A DNA stretch of 64,000 nt from an uncultured Gemmatimonadota bacterium (lineage in GTDB: Bacteria > JAAXHH01), in contig OX638340.1 in NCBI GenBank assembly GCA_951812955.1, positions 2,496,001 to 2,560,000 on the forward strand. Direction: 5' to 3'. Made by a program: the position numbers and the translations under genes. Below the pieces are notes generated by a model that worked only from the letters and a program-made list of their open reading frames with translations, searched no databases and had not been told where the DNA came from. Positions 16,384 to 46,446 of this stretch are shown piece after piece (position 1 is the first letter of the stretch; every line of letters begins with the position of its first letter).

Positions 16384-18951
16384 TTATCGAAATATAGACA
16401 GACGGGAATTTCCTGTCAAGAGAAAGCCATCCAGCACTTGCCTGGGTGAAGGACCGAGGGGTTCCGGCGGAGCGAAGTTATAAAGATCCCAGGACCGGCC
16501 GTTGGTGCGAATGACGACCGCGCCGCCCAGGTCCGTTCTGTACACTTCCGCTCCCCGCCGCCTGTATCGCTCGATGATCTGGGGCGAGGGGTGTCGGAAG
16601 CGGTTGTACATGCCGGCGGAAACGGCCACGGCCTCCGGGTCGACGGCGTTCAGGAAGGCGAAGCTGCTCGACGTGTTGCTCCCGTGATGGGGCGATTTGA
16701 GCACCGTACTTTTCAGTGTGGACGGCCAACGGCCGGTCGCGGCCTCCGCCCTTTCCTCGATGTCACCGGTCAGCAGCATGCTGAATTTACCGTAGAACAG
16801 GCGCAGGACCACAGACACCTCGTTGGCATGGTTTTTCGCGGCACCGGTCAGGAATAGGGGGTCGGGATGGAGAAATAGGCCGCGCACGTCGCCCAGAGCC
16901 GCCAGGGTGTCTCCCTTTACAACTGTACGGTACGGAATGCCGTGCAGGTCGACGGTCTCCCGCCATGCCCGGTAGGATCCGGACTCCGACGGCACGCCGC
17001 TCGAGACGACCTCGCCCACTTCCACGGACTCCACCACGGCCGAAAGTCCACCGTAGTGGTCCAGGTGTGGGTGGGTTACGATCATCGTATCCACGCGCCG
17101 GTAGCCCCCGGCGCGCAGGAAAGGCACGATGACGCGGGCGCCTGCGTCCCAGGTGGGCGACCTGGGACCGCCGTCGACCAGCAGGGTGCGCCCGTTGGGA
17201 CAGGCAATGAAGATGGCGTCGCCCTGTCCGACGTCGAGGACGGTGATCTCAAGCGACCGTTCGGGCAGCAGGCTGTAGCAGAAGAGCAGGATGGAAAGGG
17301 CCACCAGTCCCAGCCGTGCCCGGCGCTCCCGGGGAGCGCCGGGGTTCCAGAGCAGCAGCAGGCCGGCGGCATAAAACGACGCGAAAAAAAGGCCGGAAGG
17401 CGCCGGTACTTTTACCAGTGCGGTTGGCACGCTGGACAAGAACTTCGAGAGATGGATCATGACAAACAGGACCAGGGCGTTTGCGGCGCTGAACAGACGG
17501 GCTATTTCGAAGAAAAGGGGACCGGTCAGGGCGGTGAGAACGCCGAAGGTCGTATTCAGAAAGACCAGCGGCCCGATAAAGAGATTTGCGACCGCCGACA
17601 TCCAGGAAACCTGGTAGAACGTGCCCGCCACCACGGGCAGCGTGCCCAGCTGCGCCGCGATCGAGACCAGCAACCCGTCCCGCAGCCATCGGGACCACCA
17701 CTTCTCCGACCGGGAAAGCCGTTCGGGCAGCAGCTCTTTCATCCTGGGATAACCCGAGATGATGGCGTAGGTCGCGAGAAAAGAAAGCTGGAAGCTCAGG
17801 TCGAAAAGCGCCGAGGGCCAGATCAGGAGTATGACGACGGCCGCCACGGCCAGGATGTTGACGGTGTCGGTCTGCCGATCCAGCTGACGGCCTGCCAGAA
17901 AGAGCGCCGCCATGATCGTGGCCCGGATGACCGAAGGCGTCAGGTTGGTGATGAAGGCGTACAGCACCAGGACGCCCAGCGTGCCGGCTACGACGATGTG
18001 CCGCGGGAGTCTGAGGACGAAAAGCAGCGTATGGATCACCAGGGTGATCAGGCCGACGTGCAGTCCGGAAACGGCCAGGATATGGGCCAGGCCGATCGTC
18101 TTGAAGGTGTCGAGCAGCTCTTCGGGCAGCTGGCGCCGCGCGCCGAGGAGAATGCCTTTCAGCAGGGCGGCGGAATCACCCCGCATGGTCCGGTCGATTG
18201 ATCGCTCGATGCTGTTTCGGAGCGGGTCTATGACGCCGGTCTGCCAGGTGAACGACCGGTTGCGCCGCGTCACGCGATAGCTTGCGGGATCGCGCACGCT
18301 CACGAGCGCGTGGATTCCCCGGCTCTCGTAGTAGGTGCGCGCGTCGAAGCCGCCGGGATTCCGGGCAGGTTGCGGACGGCGCAGGCGGCCCGAAACGAGG
18401 ACCCGGTCGCCGTACCGGCCGGGGTCGATACCGTTGGTCAGGCGAACCTGAAGGCGTCCCGCTACCGGCGAATTACGGCCAGCCGCGGATTCCGACCCGG
18501 CCCGATCAGCCGGAAACCGTCCGGCGGCCGAAAATCGCCCGGTGGCCGGCGACATGCCACGGGATACCTCTGGAGTCCGCCCGGCAACACCAAGGGAGAT
18601 GGAATCAGCGTCCAGGGTGACGACCGTGAATCGGGATCTGACCTCGGGCGTGCGGACGATCGTGCCCGTCAGGGTGTGGCGCTCCCGCTGGTCGCTGAGT
18701 CGCCGGATGTCGTTAGACGGCACGACCCGCATCTGCGCCGCGTACCAGAAAGCGCCCGCGAACACGAGGCACAGGGCCATGCAGATCCGTGGGGATATAG
18801 CGGCGGGACCACGGGTGCGGTAGAGCACGTAACCGGACGCGATAGCCGCCATAGAACACAGCGCGAAAAGCATCGGAGATACGGCGACGCGATGACCCAG
18901 CAGGATACCGAGTACGTAGCAGACCGCGATGAACAGGGCCGGGCGCCGCAT
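16384..18951 (-). CDS. comEC: DNA internalization-related competence protein ComEC/Rec2.
   Basis: The N-terminal region is polytopic, the central segment is the competence domain, and the C-terminus is a metallo-beta-lactamase (VLDVGQGDAIFIACPNG, MIVTHPHLDHYGGL). It is 855 aa. Confidence 0.85.
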   Translation of the reverse strand: MRRPALFIAVCYVLGILLGHRVAVSPMLFALCSMAAIASGYVLYRTRGPAAISPRICMALCLVFAGAFWYAAQMRVVPSNDIRRLSDQRERHTLTGTIVRTPEVRSRFTVVTLDADSISLGVAGRTPEVSRGMSPATGRFSAAGRFPADRAGSESAAGRNSPVAGRLQVRLTNGIDPGRYGDRVLVSGRLRRPQPARNPGGFDARTYYESRGIHALVSVRDPASYRVTRRNRSFTWQTGVIDPLRNSIERSIDRTMRGDSAALLKGILLGARRQLPEELLDTFKTIGLAHILAVSGLHVGLITLVIHTLLFVLRLPRHIVVAGTLGVLVLYAFITNLTPSVIRATIMAALFLAGRQLDRQTDTVNILAVAAVVILLIWPSALFDLSFQLSFLATYAIISGYPRMKELLPERLSRSEKWWSRWLRDGLLVSIAAQLGTLPVVAGTFYQVSWMSAVANLFIGPLVFLNTTFGVLTALTGPLFFEIARLFSAANALVLFVMIHLSKFLSSVPTALVKVPAPSGLFFASFYAAGLLLLWNPGAPRERRARLGLVALSILLFCYSLLPERSLEITVLDVGQGDAIFIACPNGRTLLVDGGPRSPTWDAGARVIVPFLRAGGYRRVDTMIVTHPHLDHYGGLSAVVESVEVGEVVSSGVPSESGSYRAWRETVDLHGIPYRTVVKGDTLAALGDVRGLFLHPDPLFLTGAAKNHANEVSVVLRLFYGKFSMLLTGDIEERAEAATGRWPSTLKSTVLKSPHHGSNTSSSFAFLNAVDPEAVAVSAGMYNRFRHPSPQIIERYRRRGAEVYRTDLGGAVVIRTNGRSWDLYNFAPPEPLGPSPRQVLDGFLLTGNSRLSIFR

Positions 18952-19076: not shown

Positions 19077-19769
19077 TTAGTCCCCCACGATCTTCCCGTC
19101 ACGCAGTCGCAGGATCCGGTCGCAGTGCCTGGCGACGTGCTCTTCATGGGTCACCAGCACGATCGTATGTCCGTCCCCGTTCAGGCGATCGAATATCGCC
19201 ATGACCTCCTCCCCGGTCCCGCTGTCCAGGTTTCCGGTGGGTTCGTCCGCCAGAATGATGGACGGTTCGTTGACCAGCGCACGGGCGATGGCCACACGCT
19301 GGCGTTGTCCGCCGGACATCTCGTTGGGCCGGTGGCGGGCCCGGTCGGCGACACCCACCGCGTCCAGGGCCTCCATGGATCGTCGACTCCTTTCCATTCT
19401 GTTCATCCCACGGTAGAGGAGCGGCAATTCCACATTGCGCAGGGCGTCCATTCTCGGAAGCAAGTTGAAAGCCTGGAACACGAACCCGATCTTGCGGTTC
19501 CGGATGAAAGCCTGTTCATCGTCCGAAAGGTCTCCAACCGGTCTGCCGTCAAGTTCGTAGCTGCCCGCCGTCGGCGTATCCAGGCAACCCAGGATGTTCA
19601 TCAGGGTGGATTTCCCGGAACCCGACTGCCCCATCACAGCTACGTACTCACCCCGGTCTATGGTGGCGGAGACGCCCCGGAGCGCGGTAATGCGGTCGCC
19701 TCCCATGGGGAAGGACTTATGCAGGTTTACGATGGAGATAAGGGACGAGGAACGGATGGATCGATGCAC
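19077..19769 (-). CDS. MacB/LolD-type ABC transporter ATP-binding protein (cassette C).
   Basis: It has Walker [10 protein letters not shown], the Q-loop, the signature [15 protein letters not shown], Walker [12 protein letters not shown] and an H-loop. It has a GTG start with AGGAAG 6 nt upstream. Confidence 0.85.
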
Positions 19770-19812
19770 GACGGCTTCCTGTGACCGGGTGTGTGATTCG
19801 GTTCTATACAGG

Positions 19813-19842
19813 TATAGTCGTGGTTAAATGGGAAATCTCGTA
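19813..19842. repeat. Leader motif copy S1 (TATAGTCGTGGTTaaaTGGGAAATCTCGTA), 45-75 nt upstream of the cassette-C ATPase start on the coding strand.
   Basis: The 30-mer is read directly and recurs at 21613-21642 and, with 4 mismatches, at 26475-26504. About 95 bp of extended homology between S1 and S3 (19762-19845 versus 26406-26504) includes the GTGCATC start-codon region. Confidence 0.75.
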
Positions 19843-19991
19843 CGGGTTGCTGAATTGACAGGGTGTTCTCAATACCTGGAGTATGTTGTCAATACAAATG
19901 GTAACCAGTTGGGTTGACGGGACGTTTGCATCTCTATACCATAGTCGTTGCCCCTAATCATGAAATTGCCCCTGACCAAGGAACCAGTGAC

Positions 19992-20597
19992 ATGTCCGCT
20001 CCCGCCTCACGCATGAATGCCCGGCTATTTCTTTACGCAGCTGTCGCAGCCCTCGTCGCATTTAGCATCACCCTCTTCTGGCGCAATTATCAACAAAATC
20101 AAGACCTTCAGATTCTGCAGCATGGGCTATACAACGCCCAGGTAGAAATCCGCGTGCTGCAGGCGACCAATATGTTCGGGGCGCCCTTTATCACCCCCTT
20201 CCCCATGGTCGACCAGCACGGCCAACCTGCTGCATTACCGAATTTCGGTAATGGTCACCTGCTCCTCCTGTTTTTTAATGCGACGCATAGTCCATTTCGC
20301 CTCGACCTGATGTCTACATTTGGGTCGGTGATCGGAGACAATGTCCCGGTTATCGGCATTCTCCAGGCAGAATCGGCCGAGGAGATCTCGCCGATCGTGG
20401 ATCAATTCAGGTACAGCTTTCCGGTGTATCTGGCCGTCGATTCGCCCTTTGATCTGCCGTTTACACCCTACTGCGTGCTGATCGATGGATCCGGCAACGT
20501 GGTACACCTGTCACCCATCGCACCCGTCGGGTCCGCCGATACCCGATCGGTGGAGGCACTTATTTCGGAATTTGCGCAGTTGCTAGAGGGCGGGTAA
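19992..20597 (+). CDS. Hypothetical membrane-anchored protein with a thioredoxin/redoxin-like fold signature that lacks the CxxC motif.
   Basis: It has an N-terminal TM helix (LFLYAAVAALVAFSITLFW). A redoxin-like segment HLLLLFFNATHSPF sits where TlpA/ResA proteins carry WCxxC. This is a low-GC gene. Confidence 0.5.
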   Translation: MSAPASRMNARLFLYAAVAALVAFSITLFWRNYQQNQDLQILQHGLYNAQVEIRVLQATNMFGAPFITPFPMVDQHGQPAALPNFGNGHLLLLFFNATHSPFRLDLMSTFGSVIGDNVPVIGILQAESAEEISPIVDQFRYSFPVYLAVDSPFDLPFTPYCVLIDGSGNVVHLSPIAPVGSADTRSVEALISEFAQLLEGG

Positions 20598-20681
20598 GCC
20601 TTTTGCGCAACCTGGTGTGAAGTATCACCGGGCACCCGAAATGACGAATATGTACAATGTAAAACAAGGAGTAGCCTGATC

Positions 20682-21176
20682 ATGATCACTATTCACAAGG
20701 TGTTAATGGTATTATTGGTCCTGTCTGTAACCGCTTGTGGCGATGATGGTCAACCGAAGCAGGCAGGTCAATCGCAAATGGCTGGCCAACCGGACCAGGT
20801 TGGTCAAACGCCAACGGCAAGCCGACCGGACCCTGTGGCCGACCAGAAAGCTGGTATTTATCGGCCCACTACGGTGGACACGAAAGCTGAGATTGTTTAT
20901 TTTCCCCCTGTTCCCACCGACGTCGTCGATCTCGAATTCGATGGCCTCACAGTGATACAACTCGTTGTTGGTACTAATGGCAATGTAGACACGGCATTCG
21001 TCGAAAGATCGTCAGATCGCGTTTCTGTGGACTCTCTGATGCTGGACGTGGCTAAAAAAATGGTCTGGACGCCGGCAGTACATGACGGTGCCCGGGTAAA
21101 GATGCGAACCTCGATCCCGTTTATGTTCAAGATACCCACTCCAACCCCTGGCGAGGAGACCGTCACCGAGGAATAA
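20682..21176 (+). CDS. Lipoprotein with a C-terminal TonB-C-like domain (cassette C partner).
   Basis: It has a lipoprotein signal (LVLSVTAC). The C-terminal roughly 90 aa fit the TonB C-terminal pattern (P-x-P...VVDLEF...G-V..A-V..SS....LD.AA...V..W.P....G.V....IPF.F). This is a low-GC gene. Confidence 0.68.
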   Translation: MITIHKVLMVLLVLSVTACGDDGQPKQAGQSQMAGQPDQVGQTPTASRPDPVADQKAGIYRPTTVDTKAEIVYFPPVPTDVVDLEFDGLTVIQLVVGTNGNVDTAFVERSSDRVSVDSLMLDVAKKMVWTPAVHDGARVKMRTSIPFMFKIPTPTPGEETVTEE

Positions 21177-21528
21177 GGATCAACGTGAGATACCCCGCAG
21201 ATCGACCGTGAATGCCCTCGTCTTATCAAACCTGCTGTTTCGTTTCGAAGGAGTTACATATCCGGGCGAAGGCCCAAGCAGGCCTTCTATCCGGGAATTA
21301 CGCACGCCCAGGTGCGCAATCCGTTTTTCAATCTACGAAACCCGCTCATCAAGGTGGGCGATACGGTCGCCCAGGCGTATATCGAGTTGAGATATGCGGG
21401 TATCGAGGCTGCGCCAGACAAAGAGCAGGATCCCGATTGCGACGACATTGCTTATGACGTTTGTGGCGTCCACGATCATCTCTTGACTATGTTATTTAAA
21501 AAGTTCCAGCTTCGACATCCTTCGATCT

Positions 21529-21642
21529 ACCTGGTTCTGCCAGAACCGGATTGGCCCGAAACGGCCACGTATTCGCCCCGGTTAATGGTGGCGTATACAC
21601 CCCGCAACGCGGTATAGTCGTGGTTTGGTGGGAAATCTCGTA
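21529..21642 (-). pseudogene. Fragment of an ABC ATPase 5' region (Walker A segment only), directly abutting leader motif copy S2.
   Basis: The reverse-complement frame reads (DFPPNHDYT)ALRGVYATINRGEYVAVSGQSGSG and then terminates. It parallels residues 18-52 of the ATPase at 19077-19769. The motif at 21613-21642 is the same sequence seen upstream of that intact gene. Confidence 0.5.
21613..21642. repeat. Leader motif copy S2.
   Basis: It is identical to S1 except for 3 positions in the central spacer. The upstream 'tataca' homology is also retained, with an 11-bp insertion. Confidence 0.75.
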
Positions 21643-21793
21643 ACAAAAGGCTTTGACAAGGAAAGTGTAAGTGTCGTTCGAATGAAAGAGCATTGTACTG
21701 TGGTCAGGAGGTAATTACTTACCATAGACCCGAACGGCTGAAGCAAATGGTGCTAAGAAACAACCACAATCAGAAGTGTTACTTGCTACTGCC

Positions 21794-24193
21794 TTATTCT
21801 GCTTTGAGTGCATCAGCAGGATTCGCCGTCGCGGCTTTCAGCGCATGGTATCCGACCGTAAACCAAGTGATCGTAAGCGCGGCGAGCCCCGTGAGAATGA
21901 ACATCCACAAACCTATTTCGATACGGTACGGAAAACCTTCCAGCCACCCCTGCATGATGTAGTAACTGATAGGTACGCCAAGAACGAGAGCGATCAGGAT
22001 CAGCCAGGTAAAGTCCTTCGACAACAGCAGGATGACGTTCGAAACCGTCGCACCGACTGCCTTGCGAACGCCGATCTCCCTGGTCCGCTGTTCGGCCATG
22101 TAGGACGCCAGTCCCAACAAGCCCAGACAGGCGATCAGAATGGAAAGCGTCGCTCCGGCGATGAAGACGGACCCCAGCCGTTGTTCGGCGGCGTACTTTT
22201 GCTCGAGATCCTGGTCGAGGAAGTAGAATTCCATGGCGGGATGGTTCGGATAGGTTTCGCGCCACTGGTCCTGCAGTATTTCAAGTCCCTGGGTAAGGCT
22301 CTGGCTGCGCAGCCTGGCTACCATCGTATTGCCACCTTCCCAAAACAGAATCAAAAGCGGTTCAATGCGTTGGTGTAGCGTATGGTAGTGGAAATCCGCC
22401 ATGACGCCGACAACGTGCATTGGAGGATAGTCGGGTGTATGGGTATAGGTAAACGTCTTACCAATCGGGTCTTCCCATCCAAAAGACCTGGCAGCCGTTT
22501 CGTTGATAAGAACTGAGTAGTTGTCCGAAGCGACTGCGCGAGAAAACGTACGTCCCGATATTATCTCGATGCCCATTGTTTCTACGAAGTCGAAACCGGT
22601 CCAGATTGTGGGGATGAGCGGGGTATCCTCCACGATATATCCTTCCGGCTGAATGAAACTGGTAGCAGTTAGTCTGCCGGGCACGCTGGTTGTTGTGCTC
22701 AGGTTTACGATTTCAGGATACTGCATCACCTTGTTCCGGAAGGCCGGGAAACCCTGGACGGTCTCATAATCAGGCAGTCGTATAACTACCACGTGCTCTT
22801 TATCGAATCCCAGTTTCTTGTTTCCGATGTACTCCAGTTGCTCCAGTATAACCAACATTCCGACGATCATGATGATCGAGACGACGAACTGGAAGGTGAT
22901 CAGCGCTTTTCTGATAAGCGACGGTGAAACTCCCGTCTTCAACGCTCCGCTAAGTACGACAGCCGGCCTGAAAGAGGAAAGTACGAGGGCTGGGTATCCT
23001 CCGGCGATAATCCCGGTACAAAGTGCGATGGCCGCCAGGGCCGGCATCAGCCACGTGGATTGATAATCCATCTCCAGTGCCTTTCCCGAAAACCGGCTGA
23101 ACTCGGGCAGGAGCAGGTGTACCAGTGCCAGCGCCACGGCCAGGGCGATGAAGGCGAAGAAAACCGACTCGCCGATGAATTGCCCGATCAACTGGACCCG
23201 CTGGGCGCCCAGCACTTTCCGAATACCGACCTCCTGCGCCCGTCGTGCCGAACGGGCCGTGGATAGGTTCATGAAGTTCACGCAGGCGATCAGCAACATG
23301 AATATAGCCACCGAGGTGAAGATGTAGACATATCGAATGTCGCTGTTCGCTTTTATCTCAAGTTTGAAATTGGAGTGCAGATGGATATCGGTGAGCGGCT
23401 GCAGATAGGGTCTGAATTCCATGCCCAGCGTCTCCAGTCGTTCACCGAGGTGCCTTACCGGAAACTGGGGAAGTTTGTCTTCCAGGTCTTCCGGCGCGTA
23501 TCCCTCTTGAATCAGGAGATAGGTATACAGGGTTCTGTCCATGTTCTGGATCGTGGTCGGCTCGTTGTATATCCCGCTCGCCGAGAGAGTGGAAAACGAA
23601 GCAAGAAAGTCGGCGCGAAAATGCGAGTTCTTTGGCATATCGCGCATGATGCCCGTGACGGTAAACATGTAGATTTCGTCTGCGGAAATCACTTTCCCAA
23701 TCGGGTTCTCATTCCCGAAAATCATCTCCGCCATGGTTTCGGAAACGACAACGGTATGGGGTTTAGTCAGGGCCGTCTGGGGATTGCCCTGAACCAGAGG
23801 GAAGGTGAAAATGTCAAATACGGTTGAATCCGCAAAAATGAAGTATTTCTCCTCATAACTTTTTTCTTCGTAACCAATGAGCCAACTGGAATCCGGCGGC
23901 TTCCACCGGGTGAACTGCTCAATTTCTGGATACTCCTCCTTCAGGACCGGACCCCACGCTGATGGCGTCCTCGCCCATTCGTCCGTTCTGCCTTCCGCGG
24001 TACCAGATACCACTATTCGGTAAATCCGGTCTTTGCGCTCGTGGTGCTGATCGTAACTGAGCTCGTCCTCCACGTAGAGCAGGATCAGAATGCAGGAAGT
24101 CAGACCGATGGCCAGACCCAGGACATTAATCGTGGAATAGCCCCTGTGCCTGAACAGGTGCCTCAAAATGACGGTAACGTAGTTTCTGAACAT
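21794..24193 (-). CDS. MacB-like ABC transporter permease with duplicated FtsX domains and two large extracytoplasmic domains (cassette C).
   Basis: It is 799 aa with an N-terminal TM helix, a large loop, 3 TM, a second large loop and 3 TM. Each half ends with the FtsX-type motif (…ARSARRAQEVGIRKVLGA…, …EQRTREIGVRKAVGAT…). Confidence 0.85.
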   Translation of the reverse strand: MFRNYVTVILRHLFRHRGYSTINVLGLAIGLTSCILILLYVEDELSYDQHHERKDRIYRIVVSGTAEGRTDEWARTPSAWGPVLKEEYPEIEQFTRWKPPDSSWLIGYEEKSYEEKYFIFADSTVFDIFTFPLVQGNPQTALTKPHTVVVSETMAEMIFGNENPIGKVISADEIYMFTVTGIMRDMPKNSHFRADFLASFSTLSASGIYNEPTTIQNMDRTLYTYLLIQEGYAPEDLEDKLPQFPVRHLGERLETLGMEFRPYLQPLTDIHLHSNFKLEIKANSDIRYVYIFTSVAIFMLLIACVNFMNLSTARSARRAQEVGIRKVLGAQRVQLIGQFIGESVFFAFIALAVALALVHLLLPEFSRFSGKALEMDYQSTWLMPALAAIALCTGIIAGGYPALVLSSFRPAVVLSGALKTGVSPSLIRKALITFQFVVSIIMIVGMLVILEQLEYIGNKKLGFDKEHVVVIRLPDYETVQGFPAFRNKVMQYPEIVNLSTTTSVPGRLTATSFIQPEGYIVEDTPLIPTIWTGFDFVETMGIEIISGRTFSRAVASDNYSVLINETAARSFGWEDPIGKTFTYTHTPDYPPMHVVGVMADFHYHTLHQRIEPLLILFWEGGNTMVARLRSQSLTQGLEILQDQWRETYPNHPAMEFYFLDQDLEQKYAAEQRLGSVFIAGATLSILIACLGLLGLASYMAEQRTREIGVRKAVGATVSNVILLLSKDFTWLILIALVLGVPISYYIMQGWLEGFPYRIEIGLWMFILTGLAALTITWFTVGYHALKAATANPADALKAE

Positions 24194-24323
24194 GACGTAT
24201 TATCAGTGCCGATTTATGGACGATCGTAGAGATCGCTTAATAGCGTGCTCGACTATGTTCAGAGTGCTTTCCACGTGCAAAGTGCTTCGGTTTTCGTAAT
24301 CTGGATGCCCCGTCCATCGTCGG

Positions 24324-26198
24324 TCAACCATGTTCAGAGTCCTTCAGCACTTCAATTTTGGTCTGTCCGCTTTCCGTAGCGATTACGACATCGGTATTCC
24401 CATATTCATAGGTTGTCCCTAACGACATTCTAATGTTATTACTCGACCATGCATTGAGAGGCATCAATTCCTTTACCTCTTCATACTTCAGTACACCGCA
24501 ACGGGTATGCATAACCAAGCTGGTAGTTTTCGCTGCTTTTTCGCTTAACGCCAGTATCAGGTTGCCGGAAACGGTACGGAGGTTGCACCTGCCCCTTCGA
24601 ATACCGTCAGTGTAGCACAGCCGAGTGGTGCCATAGCGGTTGAAAATGGAAACATCTCCATTTAGATCACGTGCATCCAACACAGTACGACCGACTTCCA
24701 TATCCACACCGCCACTGATTGACTCGATCTTTCCTTCCCACTGATCTGGGCGTGCTAACATGTCGTGATCCAAGCTGCTTCCCCCACAGCCGTACATACG
24801 CTGATATACCAATCCGCTTACCTGTCGTATTTTGGAGAACTCGCTGTTGAAAAGATAGACATCTCCTGTGATTCCCTGTATATGGCAGGAATAGCAGGAA
24901 TACATTAAAAGTGAACCTTTCAAACCATCCACATTGACCTTATTGGATCTGAAAACCGACATTCTCATCCCGGCGGGAACCGAAATCGACATATGGCAAT
25001 ACGTGGCATGGCCGAATAGATTCGTTTCGTCGGTACAAACAGCTTCGAAAATATCCTCGACATTGCCTGACACGGTCGCTCTCGGCAATTCTATGGGTCG
25101 TACATTCGAAGTGTGAACAGTGATACGTAGTGATTTCCCCAGACTGTTTCCCACAGGTTTCGGCAGGGGCAGAAATCCGTCGACTTCATGCTTCAAATCT
25201 GGAAACATGTCGACCGTTCTTACACCGCCGACATTATCCTCCAGCACGCGGTCATTAATCAGATCACTTCTCCAGAATTTACTGATTGGCGACGTAGCGG
25301 CTACGTAATCAGATCCATAAGGGTTGCTGGTACCAAGAAACAACGCCCCTTCGTGGGGGCCTGTTTCCAGGTAGTTGGCGACCTGGTCATGAGATATATG
25401 AAAGCCGCTGAGGTTGCTTCGCGATTCTTCTTCCGTCAGACCCAACGCGATCTTCGAACCTTCAACAATAACCTGTTTTCCCTGTGCCTGCTTAATATCG
25501 ACCTCCGTATTCACGCCGCAGTAGAGGACAATGTTTTTCGTGTCTCCCATGTCTATGGTTTCACTGAAATCTTCTCTGGCGATCTTGCAGACCACATCCT
25601 GTACTTCATCGGTCACATCGATCTGGCTCATGGCGATGGTCTCCTTTTCCTGAGGCGACAGTGCTGCTCTCAGCCGGATCCGGGACTGGAATAGCCGTCC
25701 TTTCACCGTCGATTCGGGAATGTCCAGAAACGAGGCGATTTCCTTCAGTGAAAAACCGGTGTAGTAGTACAAATTGACGATCTGGCGATAGTGTTCGGGC
25801 AGTCTCTCGACTTCATCCCAAAGCTCGAGACACTCGAGGTATTCCCGATGGATCTGGTCCGCCAGGGGGAATTCGTCGCGCATATGTTCAGCATCCGGAT
25901 CGACTCGGACCAGACGATCAACCTTCTTCCGACGGCGCGATTCCTTGCATCGGTTGACGACGATTCTGTGAAACCAACTACCGAAAACGGCCGGGTCCTT
26001 CAATTGCGACAACTTGCAGTAAGCGGCAACGAATGCATCCTGTACCACGTCCTCCGCGTCTGTTCGATCCCGAAGGAATCCCAGCGCTACGGCGAAAGCG
26101 GCGTTCTGGTACCGCCGGACCAGCGGCTCGAAGGCGTCGGCGTTTCCCTGCAGGCACTGCAGGATGCTGTAAGTGTCGTCGTGTGTTGTTTTCGCCAT
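24324..26198 (-). CDS. ECF sigma-70 family factor fused to a roughly 430-aa cysteine-rich C-terminal domain with DUF4097/beta-solenoid-like periodicity.
   Basis: The N-terminal 180 aa contain sigma region 2 (DAEDVVQDAFVAAYCKLSQL…FHRIVVNRCKE) and region 4 (YYYTGFSLKEIASFLDIPESTVKGRLFQSRIRLR). No TM helix is evident in the remainder. Strands such as TVSGNLILAL, DVSIFNRYGTTRL and DVVIATESGQTKIEV resemble 'toastrack' repeats. Confidence 0.72.
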   Translation of the reverse strand: MAKTTHDDTYSILQCLQGNADAFEPLVRRYQNAAFAVALGFLRDRTDAEDVVQDAFVAAYCKLSQLKDPAVFGSWFHRIVVNRCKESRRRKKVDRLVRVDPDAEHMRDEFPLADQIHREYLECLELWDEVERLPEHYRQIVNLYYYTGFSLKEIASFLDIPESTVKGRLFQSRIRLRAALSPQEKETIAMSQIDVTDEVQDVVCKIAREDFSETIDMGDTKNIVLYCGVNTEVDIKQAQGKQVIVEGSKIALGLTEEESRSNLSGFHISHDQVANYLETGPHEGALFLGTSNPYGSDYVAATSPISKFWRSDLINDRVLEDNVGGVRTVDMFPDLKHEVDGFLPLPKPVGNSLGKSLRITVHTSNVRPIELPRATVSGNVEDIFEAVCTDETNLFGHATYCHMSISVPAGMRMSVFRSNKVNVDGLKGSLLMYSCYSCHIQGITGDVYLFNSEFSKIRQVSGLVYQRMYGCGGSSLDHDMLARPDQWEGKIESISGGVDMEVGRTVLDARDLNGDVSIFNRYGTTRLCYTDGIRRGRCNLRTVSGNLILALSEKAAKTTSLVMHTRCGVLKYEEVKELMPLNAWSSNNIRMSLGTTYEYGNTDVVIATESGQTKIEVLKDSEHG

Positions 26199-26474
26199 AG
26201 GGTAGTTGTCGTCTTAAGGGTTTCGTACAAAATCAGATAATAAGGAAGCGTTACATAGAATAAGATGACCTTGCGGCCTCAACGGTTAAAAACAAAATCG
26301 TGTATATGGTGGCGGTCAGGTCTCGAAGAGTTGAAATACGGCCTATCCCCTCATGGAATGACCTTTCGAGACCGACAACGCAGATTTTGGGGTCGATTCG
26401 TATCGGTAGGTTCAGATTCAAAAGGATGCACGACTCATGACCGGTATCGGAAGCGTATTCAACTTCCTATCACG

Positions 26475-26504
26475 CATAGTCGTGGTTTGGTGGGCAATTT
26501 CGAA
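26475..26504. repeat. Leader motif copy S3, lying between the two ECF-fusion genes.
   Basis: It reads cATAGTCGTGGTTTGGTGGGcAATtTCGaA. The flanking roughly 65 bp, including the GTGCATC pseudo-start, are homologous to the leader of the ATPase at 19077-19769. Confidence 0.7.
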
Positions 26505-26537
26505 CGTACAGTTACCTGCGGGGTTCGAGACTTAAAC

Positions 26538-28412
26538 TCACTTCATCGCGTCGGGGCCATCTGACAACTCGACTTCGGCGGTGCCACTTTCTGTAAGGAG
26601 CAGATAGTCCGCGTGCGTTGTATCATACGTAGTTCCGGCCGTGATGCGATGCCCGTCGTTATATGTCGAATAGAGCCGCATCACGTCCTTTGCCTGACCC
26701 AATTTCAAGACGCCACAACGCGTATACATCACAACGCTGACCGTCTTTGCGAGTCTTTCATCCAGAACCAGCTTTGCCTCGCCAGAGACGGTCCTGAGGT
26801 TACAACGAGTTCCGGATTCCCGGGATGACTGGTACAAGCGGGTTGTACCGAATCGGTTGTAAATGGATACGTCACCCTCCAGGTCCTGCGCGTCCAGCAC
26901 GAAACGGCCGACATCGATATCCACACTGCCCTTTATATTGGATAGTTTTCCTTCCCACACATCCGTGTTGCGTATCATTCCGTCAAGGTAGCTCGCGGCG
27001 CCGTATTCATACATTCGCTGACAGAACACACCGCCTACTTCATGTATATCCGAAAACATGCTGTTGAACAGGTACACATCCTTCGAGATACCGGTTATCT
27101 GGCAGGAATGGCAGGCATACACCATCAAGGAACCGTTCAATCCCTCCGCGTTGATCCGCTTCGCCTTGAACACCGAAATGTTCTTTCCGGCCGGGACCTC
27201 AATAGAAACATGACAGTACGAGGCCGGTCCGAAAACCTTGGAATCATCGGACCAGTAAACCTGGAAAACATCCTTGATGCTTTCCGTCATGGCGGAGTTC
27301 GGTACATGAATCGGCCGTACTTCCATCGTGTGAACCGAAATCCGTATTGATTTGCTCAAGCTCGCACGCGCCGGTTTTGGCAGCGGAGGAAACGTATCGA
27401 TATCGTCTTTAAGATCCGGGTACAGATCGACCAATCTCACCCCGTTACAAACTTCGTCCAGCATCCAGTCGTTCATCAGATCCCGTCTCCAGTGGTCGCT
27501 GATCCGTTTGGTCATAGCTGCGTTTTCGCCACTGGTTGAATCTACACCGACAAAAAGCTCACCTTCATGGGGACCGGCTTTATAGAAATCATCGACCGTA
27601 TCGTGGGAAACGGCAAATCCGCCAAGGTTGAGGGTTGCCTCTTCTTCGCTAAAACCAAGCGCGATCTTCGAACCTCTCACAACAACCTGTTCTCCTTGCG
27701 CCTGCTTAATCTCAACCTCCGTACTCACGCCGCAATAGAGGACGATGTTCTCTACGTCGCCCATGTCGATCGTTTCTACAAAATCCTCCTTGGCGATCCG
27801 GCAGACAACATCCTGGACCTCTTCGGTTACGTCGATCTGGCTCATGGCAATGGTCTCCTTTTCCTGTGGGGACAACGCCTCTCTCAGCCGGATTCTGGAC
27901 TGATAGAGGCGTCCCCGCGCCGTGGATTGCGGAATGTCCAGAAAGGCAGCGATTTCTTTCAGTGAGAAGCCGGTGTAGTAGTACAACGTGACGACCTGGC
28001 GATAAAGTTCCGGGAGCTGCTCGACTTCATCCCAGATTTCGAGACGCTCGATGTATTTTTGATGGATACGATCCGACATAGCGAATTCATCGCGAGATTC
28101 TCCAGAAACCGTATCGACGCGGACTTGACGACCGATTCTGCTTCGTCGGACCAGCTCCTTGCAACGGTTGACAACGATTCGGTGAAACCAACTGCCGAAA
28201 ACGGCCGGGTCCTTCAACTGCGACAGCTTGCAGTAGGCGGCCACAAAAGCATCCTGTACCACGTCCTCCGCGTCTGTTCGATCCCGAAGGTAACCCAGAG
28301 CCACGGCGAAAGCGGCATTCTGGTACCGCCGGACCAGCGGCTCGAAGGCGTTGGCGTTTCCCTGCAGGCACTGGCGGATGTTATAGGTATCGTCGTGTAT
28401 GAGAGTGGTCAT
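26538..28412 (-). CDS. ECF sigma factor / C-terminal beta-solenoid-like domain fusion protein, tandem paralog of 24324-26198.
   Basis: It is the same length (624 aa) and roughly 65-70 percent identical to its neighbour across both the sigma and C-terminal parts. Confidence 0.72.
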   Translation of the reverse strand: MTTLIHDDTYNIRQCLQGNANAFEPLVRRYQNAAFAVALGYLRDRTDAEDVVQDAFVAAYCKLSQLKDPAVFGSWFHRIVVNRCKELVRRSRIGRQVRVDTVSGESRDEFAMSDRIHQKYIERLEIWDEVEQLPELYRQVVTLYYYTGFSLKEIAAFLDIPQSTARGRLYQSRIRLREALSPQEKETIAMSQIDVTEEVQDVVCRIAKEDFVETIDMGDVENIVLYCGVSTEVEIKQAQGEQVVVRGSKIALGFSEEEATLNLGGFAVSHDTVDDFYKAGPHEGELFVGVDSTSGENAAMTKRISDHWRRDLMNDWMLDEVCNGVRLVDLYPDLKDDIDTFPPLPKPARASLSKSIRISVHTMEVRPIHVPNSAMTESIKDVFQVYWSDDSKVFGPASYCHVSIEVPAGKNISVFKAKRINAEGLNGSLMVYACHSCQITGISKDVYLFNSMFSDIHEVGGVFCQRMYEYGAASYLDGMIRNTDVWEGKLSNIKGSVDIDVGRFVLDAQDLEGDVSIYNRFGTTRLYQSSRESGTRCNLRTVSGEAKLVLDERLAKTVSVVMYTRCGVLKLGQAKDVMRLYSTYNDGHRITAGTTYDTTHADYLLLTESGTAEVELSDGPDAMK

Positions 28413-28442
28413 GTTGAATCAAATCGAAGTCTGAATGCAGTT

Positions 28443-29441
28443 TTAGTCGAGATATGCATCAAAAGCCGCCAGCAGTGAAGGATAGTAATCTTCGAAGGTC
28501 ATATCTTGAATATGATGCTGCTCGAAATCCTCAAGTGCTCGAATAAGGGCGGGGAGGTAGTGAAACCCCTTTTCTATATCTCGCACGAGTAAACGATCAC
28601 CGTGTTTTGGACCCGTTTCTCTATGAAACAATCGAGACGTAATGGCGCGTATCAAATGTTCGTTCAAGCATATCTCCCAAGCCCCATAGCCACCCGCCTT
28701 AGCCATTTTATCTAGTATCGGGTCCAACAATGAGGCGTACTTCCCGATGTCAGGGCGATGTCGTTCAGTAACGGGATTAACGAACGAATGGCCGAACTCA
28801 TGCCAGATGAGTTCCAGCAATTCGTCTCTTGTTCCATACACCGGAATACCTTCAACCGATCCGACAGGCCCTATCACGCTGAATATGGACAGCCTGTTAT
28901 CAGGATGTCGGACTCGAGGTCCGATCCCACCGTGTTGAAACAAGGGGCTCAAAACCAGGTTGTAGTCACGATGTCGCATTCCATAGTATTGTTCCAAGAC
29001 GTCGATCAAATTCTCACTGCCCAGTGTTTGAAAAACTGTGTCAATTAAGGATTTGTAGTACGTGGTTTGGCTTTCAAAAAAAGTACCAAAGTCCGATTGG
29101 ATCGCAAAATCACTCAGTAGTTTGTAGAATGTTCGAAACCGGGTTTCGCCTTGAAATGCTCGAATGTAGTATTCGTAGTTTTCGTACGGGAATATAGGTG
29201 TGAGTCCCGGCAGTTCCGACAGCGACAACACCGGACCCAGGTAGGCGTCCGAGTAAGTACCATTCTCTGTGATTTTCCTAAACAGCTTGACTGCCTCATG
29301 CGTTTTGAATGGCGAAAAGTAATCCCGCATGTACTGGGAATACGCCACATCGTACCTGGTTAGTCCTTCATAGTCGCACAGCAACTTTATAGTGATGACA
29401 AGTTCAATTCTGGGATCTACGTCGATGCTCAGCCTGGTCAT
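28443..29441 (-). CDS. Hypothetical HExxH-motif protein (putative zinc-dependent peptidase-like).
   Basis: It has a single HEFGH motif (IWHEFGHSFVNPV) in the C-terminal half. It has no signal peptide and is low-GC. Confidence 0.5.
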   Translation of the reverse strand: MTRLSIDVDPRIELVITIKLLCDYEGLTRYDVAYSQYMRDYFSPFKTHEAVKLFRKITENGTYSDAYLGPVLSLSELPGLTPIFPYENYEYYIRAFQGETRFRTFYKLLSDFAIQSDFGTFFESQTTYYKSLIDTVFQTLGSENLIDVLEQYYGMRHRDYNLVLSPLFQHGGIGPRVRHPDNRLSIFSVIGPVGSVEGIPVYGTRDELLELIWHEFGHSFVNPVTERHRPDIGKYASLLDPILDKMAKAGGYGAWEICLNEHLIRAITSRLFHRETGPKHGDRLLVRDIEKGFHYLPALIRALEDFEQHHIQDMTFEDYYPSLLAAFDAYLD

Positions 29442-29503
29442 CTCTATTTCTCCGTGCTCGGCGAAAGGAGTCGGTATATCTCGACCGAGGATACCGAATG
29501 CAC

Positions 29504-30394
29504 TTACCGTCCGTACCCGCTTTCTTTAAAAAAACGTAGCGCATCGGGGCCGTCCTTTATGGCCAGAATGTCCTCAATAGCCGCCTTTTTATCAGCCCTC
29601 TTCTCGTAGTATGCTTCACATATCTTGTACCCTACGTAGTATCCAAGGTCAGCAGGCCTTGCTCCCGTGCCGCTGCCGCCGTTGTAGAGCCATTTGCTCA
29701 TATCGGTTTGTAACATTTCATTCGAGAACGATTCCCACAATTCAGTTTCGTGCGCCTCTCCATACACGTGCAAATGAGGGTTGATGTGTTTTCCAGTTGC
29801 TAACTCTCCAAGGAAATCGGCAGCACCTTCGAGTATGGAGTGACCCAGTAGTGTGTTTTCTCCAAAATCATAGGCCTGTTGAGTGTGTATAAGTTCGTGG
29901 ATAACGATAAATGGAATCTCTTCTACCGGTTTGAGGACTTCAAGATACCATTCGTTCAGTTCGTCCGAAGGAAGATCGTCCGTCCGGCACCAAATTTCGG
30001 TCCCGATCAGCAGCCCATTGCTCGACGTTGTTCCGCCGGAGGTCATTTTGCCAATCATAAAGTACACATCTGGAAAATCTGCCTTACTGTATAGTTGCTT
30101 CCAGTTGTGCATATACCCACGGATCTGATCGGTCAAATCCAACACACGGTTTGAACTCTCTCTTATAGAAGCGTAATACCTCGGTCGGGCTTCGATTACC
30201 TTGACCAACTCATCCGCACTCTCGATTCTGGATTCGATGAAATCTTTTAAACCGATACTGCCCTTTGCGAAGTACTCCGATTCGAAGATGTTTATCATTT
30301 CTTCTGTAGTCTTGCCTTCTGACAGGTCGTACGCCAGCCAGAAACGATCGATATCGGAAGTAACCAACCGGACGTCGTCGGGATCGTTACTCAT
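29504..30394 (-). CDS. Hypothetical HExxH-motif protein (DUF2268-like putative Zn-dependent protease).
   Basis: It has a HELIHTQ motif followed by GHSILEGAADF, and its length is near 300 aa. The assignment is from memory of the family and was not searched. Confidence 0.5.
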   Translation of the reverse strand: MSNDPDDVRLVTSDIDRFWLAYDLSEGKTTEEMINIFESEYFAKGSIGLKDFIESRIESADELVKVIEARPRYYASIRESSNRVLDLTDQIRGYMHNWKQLYSKADFPDVYFMIGKMTSGGTTSSNGLLIGTEIWCRTDDLPSDELNEWYLEVLKPVEEIPFIVIHELIHTQQAYDFGENTLLGHSILEGAADFLGELATGKHINPHLHVYGEAHETELWESFSNEMLQTDMSKWLYNGGSGTGARPADLGYYVGYKICEAYYEKRADKKAAIEDILAIKDGPDALRFFKESGYGR

Positions 30395-30908
30395 TGAGGA
30401 AAACCTCCCTGTTTGCTGAGCATAGGCTATTGCGAAACTCGTACCAGCAGAAATACCAACAAAGGACCATGCACGTCTCGAATCTCGTTGAGTTCATAAC
30501 AGACATGATCATGGGTCTAGTTTTCCTTTGCCAGTCTGCACCCTGTGAAGAAGTCTGAATCGGTCGACCGTATGTTGACCGTACATGGTTTACAGGTGTT
30601 GATTGCCCGATGAGGGACATAACCCTCTGATAGTTTAGACGCTTCAGTACTCCAATTGATCAAAATCGAATTTGTTGGTTCTGTGAATTTGCAAATGAGA
30701 AGTCCACACACGATCATAAGAGGGACATTTACACATCGTACGTTTTGTCCTCAATTTCGTGGTCTGGTTGTTCACTGTATACACCCCACCGCATCATTGA
30801 CACCGGCACCGATTCCCTTATATTCTATATATAGGTATTACTACATATAAAAAGGATCACGAGAGCAGGCTGAATACCATTAGCATTTCAAACTGAACAG
30901 GAGTAGTC

Positions 30909-32888: not shown

Positions 32889-34452
<1,564 letters not shown>

Positions 34453-34536
34453 AGTTATTGAAACTCGAGGTCGACTTGTCCGGCGCACGATGTGCACGCT
34501 GTCATGTTTTTAAAGTTGGGGGGCCTGTAGTACTGG

Positions 34537-34613
<77 letters not shown>

Positions 34614-34623
34614 TTGAAAGCCG

Positions 34624-34696
34624 GGGGATATAGCTCAGCTGGGAGAGCGCCGGCTTTGCAAGCCGGAGGTCACCGGTTCGATCCCGGTTATCTCCA
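34624..34696 (+). tRNA. tRNA-Ala (anticodon TGC) in the 16S-23S spacer; CCA is not encoded.
   Basis: It has the GGGGATA…TATCTCC acceptor stem with the G3:U70 identity pair, the anticodon loop tTTGCAa and TTCGATCCC in the T-arm. It is followed by ctgg. Confidence 0.92.
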
Positions 34697-34800
34697 CTGG
34701 GCACAGCAGACGAGTACAGGTGCCCGCTCTTTGACAATTACATAGGAATGACGGGAACGGCGTTGTAACATCGGAGCACTCAAGCACAGTAGCATTTTTT

Positions 34801-37869
<3,069 letters not shown>

Positions 37870-37921
37870 GCTCCAATTTATGTCGTCGTTCTCTCATTCC
37901 ATGTAATTGCCAACCCATTTC

Positions 37922-38040
37922 TTCCGGTGGCGATAGCGGAGGGGAAACACCTCTTCCCATTCCGAACAGAGTAGTTAAGCCCTCTTGCGCCGATGGTACT
38001 GCTTGGGTGACCTTGTGGGAGAGTAGGACGCTGCCGGGGG
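37922..38040 (+). rRNA. rrf: 5S ribosomal RNA.
   Basis: It contains CCGAACAGAGTAGTTAAGCC…GCGCCGATGGTA…GGGAGAGTAGGACGCTGCC, which aligns with the bacterial 5S consensus. Confidence 0.9.
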
Positions 38041-38084: not shown

Positions 38085-38147
38085 GGGGCTAATGAAAGCT
38101 TTAGATCGCTAGCGTAGTCTGGTTGTCTGGCCAGGTCCGGTCGTCGT

Positions 38148-38822
38148 TTACGCGGCGGTGTTTACAATGCGTCCGTCGAAGAGGCGGATGATCCGGTGGG
38201 CGTGATCGGCCAGAACCTGGTCGTGGGTCACCATGATGATGGTCGTGCCCGCCTCGTTGAGGCCGTTTAGCAGTTCCATGACCTCCGAGCCGTTGGCAGA
38301 ATCCAGGTTACCCGTCGGCTCATCCGCCAGGATCAGCTTGGGATTGCCGATGACCGCCCGCGCCACGGCTACGCGCTGTTGCTGGCCGCCGGAAAGCTGC
38401 TGCGGGAAGTGATTACGCCGGTGGGGGATCTGCATGTGGTCCATCGCCGCATCCACCCGTTCCTTGCGCTCCTGCTTGGACGTGCCCAGGTAGATCAGCG
38501 GAAGCTCGATGTTCTCGTAGACGGTCAGTTCGTCGATCAGGTTGAAGCTCTGGAACACGAAGCCGATGTTGTTCTTGCGCAGATTGGCTCTTTGCCGCTC
38601 GGAGTGGCCGGACACTTCCTGGTCCAGGAAATGGTATTCCCCGCCCGTAGGGTTGTCGAGAAGGCCGAGGATGTTGAGCAAGGTGGACTTGCCGCAACCC
38701 GACGGCCCCATGACCGCCACGAACTCGCCCTGGTCCACGGCCATGCTCACGTCGTTCAACGCCGTCGTCTCCACCTCTTCGGTCGCATAGAGTTTCTGCA
38801 AGTTGCTGGTCGCTATCATCAC
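38148..38822 (-). CDS. MacB/LolD-type ABC ATP-binding protein (cassette A).
   Basis: It has Walker A GPSGCGKST, the signature LSGGQQQRVAVARAV and Walker [12 protein letters not shown]. It is roughly 93 percent identical at the protein level to the ATPase at 45626-46297. Confidence 0.85.
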   Translation of the reverse strand: MMIATSNLQKLYATEEVETTALNDVSMAVDQGEFVAVMGPSGCGKSTLLNILGLLDNPTGGEYHFLDQEVSGHSERQRANLRKNNIGFVFQSFNLIDELTVYENIELPLIYLGTSKQERKERVDAAMDHMQIPHRRNHFPQQLSGGQQQRVAVARAVIGNPKLILADEPTGNLDSANGSEVMELLNGLNEAGTTIIMVTHDQVLADHAHRIIRLFDGRIVNTAA

Positions 38823-43027: not shown

Positions 43028-43040
43028 GATCGGGTGCTCC

Positions 43041-45503: not shown

Positions 45504-45625
45504 GAAGTGGCATTGACGATTCGCGTTACCGAATCAAGGGGAGTTGCTTTCAAGGTATCCAATAGACCAGGAATCAACAACCGTCTATGCGACGCAGTTC
45601 CACAAGGTATCCCCATAGGTCGCGC

Positions 45626-46297
45626 TTACGCGGCCTCCGTCACGATCCGTCCGTCGAAGAGCCTGATGGTCCGGTGGGCGTGGTCGGCCAGCGCCTGGTC
45701 GTGGGTCACCATGATGATGGTCGTGCCCGCCTCGTTGAGGCCGTTGAGCAGTTCCATCACCTCGGCGCCGTTGGCCGAGTCCAGGTTACCCGTCGGCTCG
45801 TCCGCCAGGATCAGCCTGGGGTTGCCGATGACCGCCCGCGCCACGGCCACGCGCTGCTGCTGGCCGCCGGATAGCTGCTGCGGGAAGTGGTTCCGGCGGT
45901 GGGGGATCTGCATGTGCTCCATCGCCGCGTCCACCCGTTCCTTGCGCTCCTGCTTCGACGTGCCCAGGTAGATCAGCGGCAGTTCGATGTTCTCGTACAC
46001 GGTCAGCTCATCGATCAGGTTGAAGCTCTGGAAGACGAAGCCTATGTTGGCCTTGCGCAGGTTGGCGCGCTGCCGCTCGGAGTGGCCGGACACTTCCTGG
46101 TCCAGGAAATGGTACTCCCCGCCCGATGGATTGTCGAGGAGACCGAGGATGTTGAGCAGGGTGGACTTGCCGCAGCCCGAGGGTCCCATGACCGCCACGA
46201 ACTCGCCTTCGTCCACGGCCATGGTCACATCGTTCAGCGCCGTCGTCTCTACCTCTTCGGTCGCGTAGAGTTTCTTGAGATGTTCTGTCCTGATCAT
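45626..46297 (-). CDS. MacB/LolD-type ABC ATP-binding protein (cassette B), a near-identical paralog of 38148-38822.
   Basis: The motifs are the same. DNA identity to the cassette-A ATPase is high from about codon 10 to the stop and ends abruptly at both gene ends. The gene has backbone-like GC and sits at the edge of low-GC DNA. Confidence 0.85.
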   Translation of the reverse strand: MIRTEHLKKLYATEEVETTALNDVTMAVDEGEFVAVMGPSGCGKSTLLNILGLLDNPSGGEYHFLDQEVSGHSERQRANLRKANIGFVFQSFNLIDELTVYENIELPLIYLGTSKQERKERVDAAMEHMQIPHRRNHFPQQLSGGQQQRVAVARAVIGNPRLILADEPTGNLDSANGAEVMELLNGLNEAGTTIIMVTHDQALADHAHRTIRLFDGRIVTEAA

Positions 46298-46446
46298 GGT
46301 GCGCTCCCGTAGTGTGGTAATACTCCGTATCCACGCATGCCATTTCGGAATCGTTCCTAATATCAAAGTAGCAAATGAAGAGGGTTGCAATTCCAGGTCG
46401 GAGAGATTAACTCCATAGATTGTGCGACTACGTTCATGCTGGAGAA

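Follow-up and report, generated by a model that had tools for sequence, protein, structure and literature searches.

Why should a short segment of the leader of one transporter gene recur twice more within a few kilobases (kb) of itself? The question arises at a locus of an uncultured Gemmatimonadota bacterium (assembly GCA_951812955.1, contig OX638340.1), of which a stretch of 64,000 nucleotides (nt; positions 2,496,001 to 2,560,000) was analysed. This whole stretch is referred to as the window, and coordinates are its own unless a related locus is named. Here a 30-nt core from the upstream region of an ATP-binding cassette (ABC) transporter ATPase gene occurs in three copies, numbered from copy 1, which precedes the intact gene, to copy 3, which lies between two genes for sigma factors of the extracytoplasmic function (ECF) type. 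An earlier note on this DNA had read the copies as traces of repeated rearrangement in an ancestral permease–ATPase operon, possibly with capture of its promoter by inserted foreign genes. On comparison with related loci we consider it probable that copy 1 is the working copy, and that copies 2 and 3 are relics left by duplication and deletion at the edge of a strain-variable island.

The core repeat and its distribution

Written as the pattern TATAGTCGTGGTT-NNN-TGGGAAATCTCGTA (30 nt, with three free central bases), the core was matched exactly at 19813-19842 and 21613-21642 in a scan of the + strand, against a chance expectation of 0.00 (100 shuffles). The full copy 3, at 26475-26504, has four substitutions, and a 19-nt version of the core, ATAGTCGTGGTTNNNTGGG, is present there at 26476-26494 without mismatch. 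A repeat search placed the three copies in a single family (D4), and relative to the local genes all are oriented on the − strand. They lie within 7 kb of one another, and a fourth was not found in the 64-kb window. The earlier statement that a segment of the ATPase leader is present three times is therefore correct, with two exact copies and a third at four mismatches, and two of the three are attached to fragments of the ATPase gene. Alignment of the flanks, which that note had called for, extends the homology well past the 30-mer: copy 2 continues into ATPase residues ~28-54, and copy 3 is followed by a 10-mer of the ATPase start region and by residues 5-37.

A 22-base version of the motif was sought in 185,579 representative genomes (one per species) and gave three sites, all in the same locus: two in OZ252103.1, represented among our related loci by the contiguous L003 and L001, and one in OY762445.1 (L002). 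These are related complete chromosomes of 3.7-3.9 Mb, which carry two copies and one copy, respectively, at this locus only. A scan of metagenomes returned a single contig (L004), with two copies in the same locus, and 422 kb of related loci contained no additional core apart from the ATPase upstream position and its relics. Because the matches of these scans all fall at one locus, the motif is not a dispersed repeat, and the possibility of a common genome-wide element, raised earlier as an objection, falls away.

Copy 1 and the leader of the ATPase–ComEC unit

Copy 1 (19811-19842) is the distal 30 nt of a 72-nt upstream region, or leader (19770-19841, − strand), that is conserved in orthologues. 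The leader precedes an intact ABC-transporter ATPase gene of 230 amino acids (aa) with a GTG start (19077-19769, −; Pfam ABC_tran, E=1.7e-33), for which a homologue search returned a 100%-identical protein (P0001) and homologues of 86% identity labelled Gemmatimonadetes/Gemmatimonadota. The earlier note was right that this ATPase is intact but not about its neighbour, as the gene that follows is not a permease gene; it encodes a ComEC/Rec2 protein (16384-18951, −) with Competence, DUF4131 and Lactamase_B domains. The -10-like element TGTATAGA (19804-19817) and the AGGAAG (19775-19780) that had been pointed out in copy 1 are both present on the − strand.

For comparison, ATPase orthologues of 70-98% identity were taken from 19 further contigs, and 23 related loci, designated by L numbers, were available in all. 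In every orthologous locus the ATPase gene is followed by comEC, in some with one to three small open reading frames (ORFs) between them. The upstream region stands at a fixed offset (-72 to -1) before the ATPase gene in 23 of 23 related loci, and in an ungapped alignment of 14 upstream regions the homology begins at ACGAG, -72 from the GTG start, in every orthologue. At least four unrelated contexts lie beyond this edge, namely the end of an ECF gene, the end of a permease gene, a divergent thioredoxin-like (Trx)/TonB gene, and a divergent gene for a NERD/UvrD-type helicase.

Two boxes stand out within the leader, (C)GAGAT (box 1, 19835-19840) and CACGACTA (box 2, 19815-19822), and the bipartite motif that they form, CGAGAT-N12-CACGACTA, is found at -70 (-70 to -46 from the start codon) in every one of the 23 related loci. 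In the most distant orthologues, L022 and L023, which are AT-rich, share 70% identity in the ATPase and are otherwise unalignable in their upstream DNA, only these two boxes are kept, at the same -70, and both fall inside the 30-nt core. Each pair compared also shows stronger conservation of the leader (65-72 of 72 positions) than of the first 160 coding bases (126-151 of 160). The core is most likely a functional cis-element of the ATPase–ComEC unit, that is, part of a promoter and/or an operator or other regulator-binding site.

The proximal leader carries GAACC-N16-CACA; the GTC at that place is lost in L007 and L008. Sigma-54 and extended -10 readings of the leader were tried by eye and did not fit. 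A 6-2-6 dyad beside the core, CTATAC-CT-GTATAG, is not conserved in L007, L008 and L013, and the repeat search found no inverted repeat, terminal inverted repeats or palindrome involving the core itself. When the first half of the core was used alone, 28 sites were found where 18.8 were expected, which is close to chance, and a match to box 2 inside the N-terminal coding sequence of the second ECF gene (28386-28400) is likewise within chance expectation. We also considered the core as coding sequence (− strand, RDFP(P/F)NHDYT) and rejected it, since the frame lacks a start and its conservation ends with the core; the 3 nt in which copies 1 and 2 differ correspond to a single codon of this frame. 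A weak tblastn match of the peptide to ATPase residues was put down to chance, as the genuine coding copy of those residues has the same element ahead of it.

Copy 2 and its ATPase relic

Copy 2 (21611-21642, −) has both boxes perfect, with 31/31 identity to the leader by blastn, and is joined directly to an ATPase pseudogene fragment (21532-21614, −) that corresponds to residues ~28-54 (tblastn E=1e-12; 75% nucleotide identity to 19607-19689 over 83 nt). The fragment encodes TALRGVYATINRGEYVAVSGQSGSGRTR*, in which a degenerate Walker A motif (GSGRTR) is followed by a stop, and it has no start codon. Compared with copy 1, the 29-32-nt core is retained and there is a gap of ~125 nt, which takes in the proximal 40 nt of the leader along with codons 1-27. 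The fragment is followed by a small ORF of 48 aa (21333-21479, −), ended by a TAG where relatives have CAG and continue to 82-91 aa. The small ORF encodes a membrane/coiled-coil protein, with a weak DUF2730 match in L014, and its intact form is normally found after the ATPase gene and before comEC; in L007, L013 and L014 it stands directly after a complete ATPase gene.

Less decayed forms of this unit exist in relatives. In OZ252103.1 it consists of the full leader and ~85 ATPase codons (the 5' 245 nt), joined to the last ~40 nt of the ATPase gene and then to the small ORF, and in L004 it consists of the leader, ~55 ATPase codons and the small ORF. The decay is thus graded, being least in OZ252103.1, greater in L004 and greatest in the window. 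Genome-specific variants are common to the copies within one genome: those of L004 are identical at 72/72 positions, and both copies of OZ252103.1 have GATAG..AGG. Such sharing, as read from the alignments, shows gene conversion or recent exchange. Where the small ORF meets the Trx/TonB segment, the join has no homology; on the ATPase/ComEC side the sequences are homologous. On this comparison, copy 2 is what survives of a second unit, formerly complete, in which upstream element, ATPase gene and small ORF followed one another.

Copy 3 and the ECF-fusion genes

In copy 3 (26471-26506, −) box 2 is intact and box 1 reads CGAAAT. What follows (26305-26434, −) is a pseudo-start, GTCGTGCATC (26425-26434), a 10-mer identical to the start-codon region of the ATPase gene, and a remnant of ATPase residues 5-37 (26305-26403; 45% identity, tblastn E=2e-5). 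The frame of the pseudo-start meets a stop after ~30 codons, and the ATPase-like stretch is in another frame. Copy 3 and its relic lie between two ECF-fusion genes of 624 aa each, ECF1 (24324-26198, −) and ECF2 (26538-28412, −), which are tandem paralogues with a period of 2214 bp. The same arrangement is found between the tandem ECF genes of L005, L006 and L016. In L015 the relic between the ECF genes is more decayed and the core is lost, and L014 has a relic without the core between a permease gene and an ECF gene. Between the window and L005/L006, the copy-3 intergenic region is no more conserved than the neighbouring ECF DNA. Because the ECF pair has a 2214-bp period, and because the same core and relic lie within the pair in L005, L006 and L016, copy 3 is, to judge from its setting, the junction scar of a tandem duplication that would have run from upstream of an ECF gene into the 5' end of the ATPase gene.

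Downstream of copy 3 and ~70 nt upstream of ECF1 stands an ECF-type promoter-like motif, TTTTTAACC-N16-CATC (26264-26292, −). It is a variant of TTTTGAYC-N16-CGTC, a consensus derived here by comparing relatives and not defined experimentally, which is conserved before ECF-fusion genes and array heads in L004 (2207-2228), L005, L012 (7149-7172), L013 (6688-6709), L014 (5351-5374), L015 (7943-7971) and OZ252103.1. A second site in the window lies at 30638-30665 (−), upstream of the DUF2268 gene. ECF promoters typically have a CGTC -10 element and a 16-nt spacer (PMC3426412), and the motif probably marks autoregulation and a local regulon of the ECF-fusion sigmas. With their long C-terminal extensions and the TTTTGAYC-N16-CGTC before their genes, these sigmas resemble known ECF fusions such as ECF41, which serves here as an example group only; the -35 element of ECF41, TGTCACA (PMC3426412), is other than that of the motif described here.

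The C-terminal extension, of ~440 aa, matches no Pfam family and shows no obvious membrane segment. Among relatives, the ECF-fusion genes are invariably found intermingled with MacB/FtsX permease genes, upstream of a single ATPase gene, an arrangement that suggests a sigma–permease–ATPase signalling module. ECF1 itself is a mosaic with a breakpoint at ~25350: it is 97-100% identical to L005/L006 upstream of this point and 62-69% downstream, vs 95.6% throughout in comparison with L016.

The strain-variable island

The copies lie at the borders of an 11-kb island (19842-30782) whose GC content, 0.47-0.54, is low compared with the 0.61-0.66 of its flanks, and which is bounded by the ATPase upstream element on one side and by the AhpC promoter on the other. 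Apart from the ECF genes, the ATPase relic and the small ORF, it contains a Trx-like gene (19914-20597, +), a TonB_C gene (20682-21176, +), a MacB/FtsX permease gene (21794-24193, −; Pfam), and DUF4932 and DUF2268 genes. The window and OZ252103.1 have the Trx-like and TonB_C genes as two separate genes; L004, L006 and L013 have one fused gene of 346-364 aa in their place. Good sigma-70-type promoter-like sites were seen for AhpC (TTGACA-17-TATTCT, 30797-30826, +, by eye) and for the Trx-like gene (TTGACG-17-TACCAT, 19914-19942, +, by a consensus scan).

The same slot is occupied very differently among relatives. It is empty in L002 and L017-21, and holds permease-ECF-ECF in L005, the same together with Trx/TonB in L006, permease-ECF in L007, permease-ECF-ECF-permease in L016, ECF-permease-relic-Trx/TonB in L004, an ECF gene and then Trx/TonB on the opposite strand in L012 and L013, two ECF-permease pairs in L014, DUF2268-DUF4932-ECF-ECF in L015, and a NERD/UvrD-type helicase gene in L008-11. 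ECF-fusion and MacB-type permease genes are therefore normal, highly reshuffled occupants of the slot in relatives down to 83% ATPase identity and not foreign insertions into a permease–ATPase operon, and the earlier proposal of a foreign ECF pair is not supported.

The proposal that the copies mark rearrangement junctions fared better. The closest relative, L016, is collinear with the window at 95.6% on both sides; what it is missing is precisely the 1.8 kb that separates copies 2 and 1 (19843-21610), a segment flanked in the window by a 31-32-nt direct repeat, the two copies themselves. L016 3137-9959 corresponds to window 28414-21611 and L016 9928-20693 to window 19842-9093, so that the two matches overlap by the core, and this segment is the only structural difference from L016 on that side of the island. 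L002 lacks everything from copy 1 to 30782. Its 'empty' form keeps 34 nt from the N-terminal part of an ECF gene and ~50 nt from the end of one, joined to copy 1, and these scraps indicate that the empty state is a deletion derivative.

The far border, at 30782, is 15 nt upstream of the AhpC -35 hexamer and equally sharp. Since no core copy is present there, trimming of the island down to the edges of functional elements would be sufficient to account for sharp borders, with no need of a site-specific enzyme.

Elsewhere in the window, two ABC ATPase paralogues (38145-38444 and 45623-45922) that are 90% identical over 300 nt lie beside MacB-type permease genes (40583-48864), and neither has the core upstream. 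A ribosomal RNA operon (32890-38039) lies near the island.

Discussion

If copies 2 and 3 are relics, as we consider probable, the locus probably reached its present form as follows. A unit comprising ECF promoter, ECF-fusion gene, upstream element and ~70 codons from the start of the ATPase gene would have been duplicated in tandem, with a period of 2214 bp, which would have left a truncated ATPase 5' end, copy 3, between the ECF genes. A segment consisting of Trx/TonB, upstream element and ATPase gene would have been joined beside the second complete unit, making that unit redundant. The probable route is recombination with DNA of a strain having a Trx/TonB–ATPase arrangement like that of L006 and L013, through one homologous crossover in the ATPase/ComEC flank plus a single illegitimate join. 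Internal deletions would then have worn down the redundant ATPase gene step by step: a single one is seen in OZ252103.1, L004 has more, and the window, where copy 2 would additionally have lost ~125 nt, fusing the core to codon 28, has the most. Being direct repeats, the copies are substrates for gene conversion and deletion, and together with the paralogous ECF and permease genes they help to make the 11-kb island one of the most rearranged places in the lineage.

In several respects the extra copies behave like known relics of gene duplication. They run in register into the coding sequence of the parent gene, are truncated and contain stops, are placed at the junctions of the 2214-bp tandem repeat and of a second duplicated unit, and have less decayed intermediates in relatives. 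They differ from such relics in that the non-coding distal part outlasts the coding part and in that the copies are homogenised within a genome, which points to gene conversion and/or constraint on the cis-element, beyond plain decay. The island, in turn, resembles islands exchanged between strains, as it has fixed flanks (the AhpC promoter on one side; the upstream element, ATPase gene and comEC on the other), low GC and at least eight arrangements in relatives, and as one of its joins, that of the small ORF to TonB/Trx, is non-homologous and the other side homologous. It differs from them in its content, which consists mostly of paralogous ECF-sigma and permease modules with no mobility genes, and in being known from sequence comparison. 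Exchange of that kind, through conserved flanks, includes homology-facilitated illegitimate recombination during natural transformation, a term used in PMC3410848 and PMC8116780.

Several points weigh against this history or against parts of it. The core is well preserved in copies 2 and 3 of the window, where selection and gene conversion are inseparable as causes, and the absence of the core from the copy-3 orthologue of L015 favours conversion or chance. Within 1-2 nt of ACGAG the element gives way to any of several unrelated sequences, which could signal a site preference in some recombination process. A scan for the sigma-70 consensus (TTGACA-like and TATAAT-like hexamers 16-18 nt apart) found no site in copies 1, 2 and 3, and the core likewise lacks the TTTTGAYC-N16-CGTC found nearby, so that the match to the -35/-10 preference of the ECF-fusion sigmas, for which the earlier note had proposed a test, is not borne out. 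This Gemmatimonadota genome does seem to use canonical promoters, which makes it notable that the ATPase leader has none, and the label 'promoter' for the leader comes from its position and conservation. The copy count for the source genome is that of the 64-kb window, and the order of insertion and deletion between L016 and the window is an argument from parsimony, not proof.

A more far-reaching role for the bipartite motif is possible, though doubtful. Fixed at -70 throughout this Gemmatimonadota lineage, CGAGAT-N12-CACGACTA might be recognised by an uncharacterised regulator, or by an alternative sigma factor, in control of comEC, which encodes the DNA-uptake channel, and might double as a homology anchor for the swapping of whole ECF-sigma/permease modules between strains.

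Promoter capture, as put forward in the earlier note, found no support here and appears unlikely. Under this explanation copy 3 would drive ECF1 and the permease gene, and copy 2 the small ORF, and both copies would have been kept for that reason. It is true that each of them has same-strand genes downstream, that in the window the core has survived better than the relic sequence beside it, and that a complete leader stands before an intact small ORF in L004 and OZ252103.1. The last of these observations reflects retention and not capture, as the link between leader and small ORF is ancestral, through the ATPase gene, in L007, L013 and L014. In the window, copy 2 has neither the proximal 40 nt of the leader nor a start codon, and the small ORF that it would drive is cut short by the premature TAG. 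For ECF1, a conserved ECF-type promoter-like motif of its own lies downstream of copy 3, so that the gene has no need of the ATPase element, and the core is gone from both the copy-3 orthologue of L015 and the relic of L014.

The abrupt edge of the element also invites the idea that the core serves site-specific recombination, as an att-like site or a cassette boundary at whose outer edge a recombinase would insert or excise gene modules, as in integrons and integrative elements. The homology of all copies stops within 1-2 nt of ACGAG against at least four unrelated neighbours, a 31-32-nt direct repeat bounds the 1.8-kb segment missing from L016, and an island of low GC lies between the copies. 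As in attL/attR pairs, direct repeats that include the end of a host gene flank inserted DNA, and the displaced copy of the gene end decays. Yet the repeat varies from 31 to ~300 nt between strains; in L004 and OZ252103.1 it covers 170-300 nt including ATPase coding sequence, which fits duplication of a gene end and not a short crossover site. The displaced copy was a whole gene, which still has its own 3' end and downstream ORF, and on its side the 1.8-kb segment encodes only the Trx-like and TonB_C proteins, the ATPase relic and the small ORF. No integrase or recombinase domain was found by Pfam in the large ORFs of 13.6-30.4 kb, which cover the island and its flanks, nor in the gene tables of the 23 related loci. 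Compared with integrons, an IntI-type tyrosine recombinase is missing, the core has no attC-like inverted-repeat arms, the Trx/TonB segment lies on the opposite strand with a promoter-like site of its own, and the ECF genes have their own promoter-like motif. Given, in addition, that the border at 30782 is as sharp without a core, we regard site-specific recombination at the core as distinctly unlikely.

A structured cis-regulatory RNA is, in our estimation, very unlikely. In such a model, CACGAC of the core would pair with GUCGUG at the start codon and hide the ribosome-binding site and start until a signal is received. RNAalifold and a single-sequence fold predict a 6-bp outer stem with two inner stems, and the stem can form in 12 of 12 aligned leaders, including that of copy 3. 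None of the 15 predicted pairs shows a compensatory change, however, and the fold is no more stable than that of shuffled sequence (z = -1.07). The copies match no Rfam family, either at the gathering score or at E<=10, and permissive thresholds over 19600-26700 gave three chance-level matches, none of them in the copies. Box 2, CACGACTA, is kept in copy 2 without any start codon and in L022 and L023, where the start region reads GGCGATGACT and offers no pairing partner; the start-codon hairpin model was dropped on account of L023.

That the motif is a dispersed, genome-wide repeat of the type of repetitive extragenic palindromes or miniature inverted-repeat transposable elements has nothing in its favour beyond the three copies within 7 kb and, with exact matches in representative genomes confined to this locus in two related chromosomes, the sole metagenome contig representing the same locus, no other copy in the 422 kb of related loci and no terminal inverted repeats or palindrome, is too improbable to need further discussion.

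The locus is an ordinary kind of genome scar and reveals no new mobile or regulatory system, and the genome dynamics that it records are of a known kind that does not challenge current understanding. What it offers is a well-resolved case, with graded intermediates in relatives, of an island remodelled by tandem duplication, gene conversion and direct-repeat deletion, and a reminder that a striking short repeat may be the most conspicuous trace of gene duplications that have decayed. As by-products, it provides two candidate cis-elements for a poorly studied phylum, namely the upstream element of the ATPase–ComEC unit and the ECF-type promoter-like motif of sigma factors with large C-terminal fusions.

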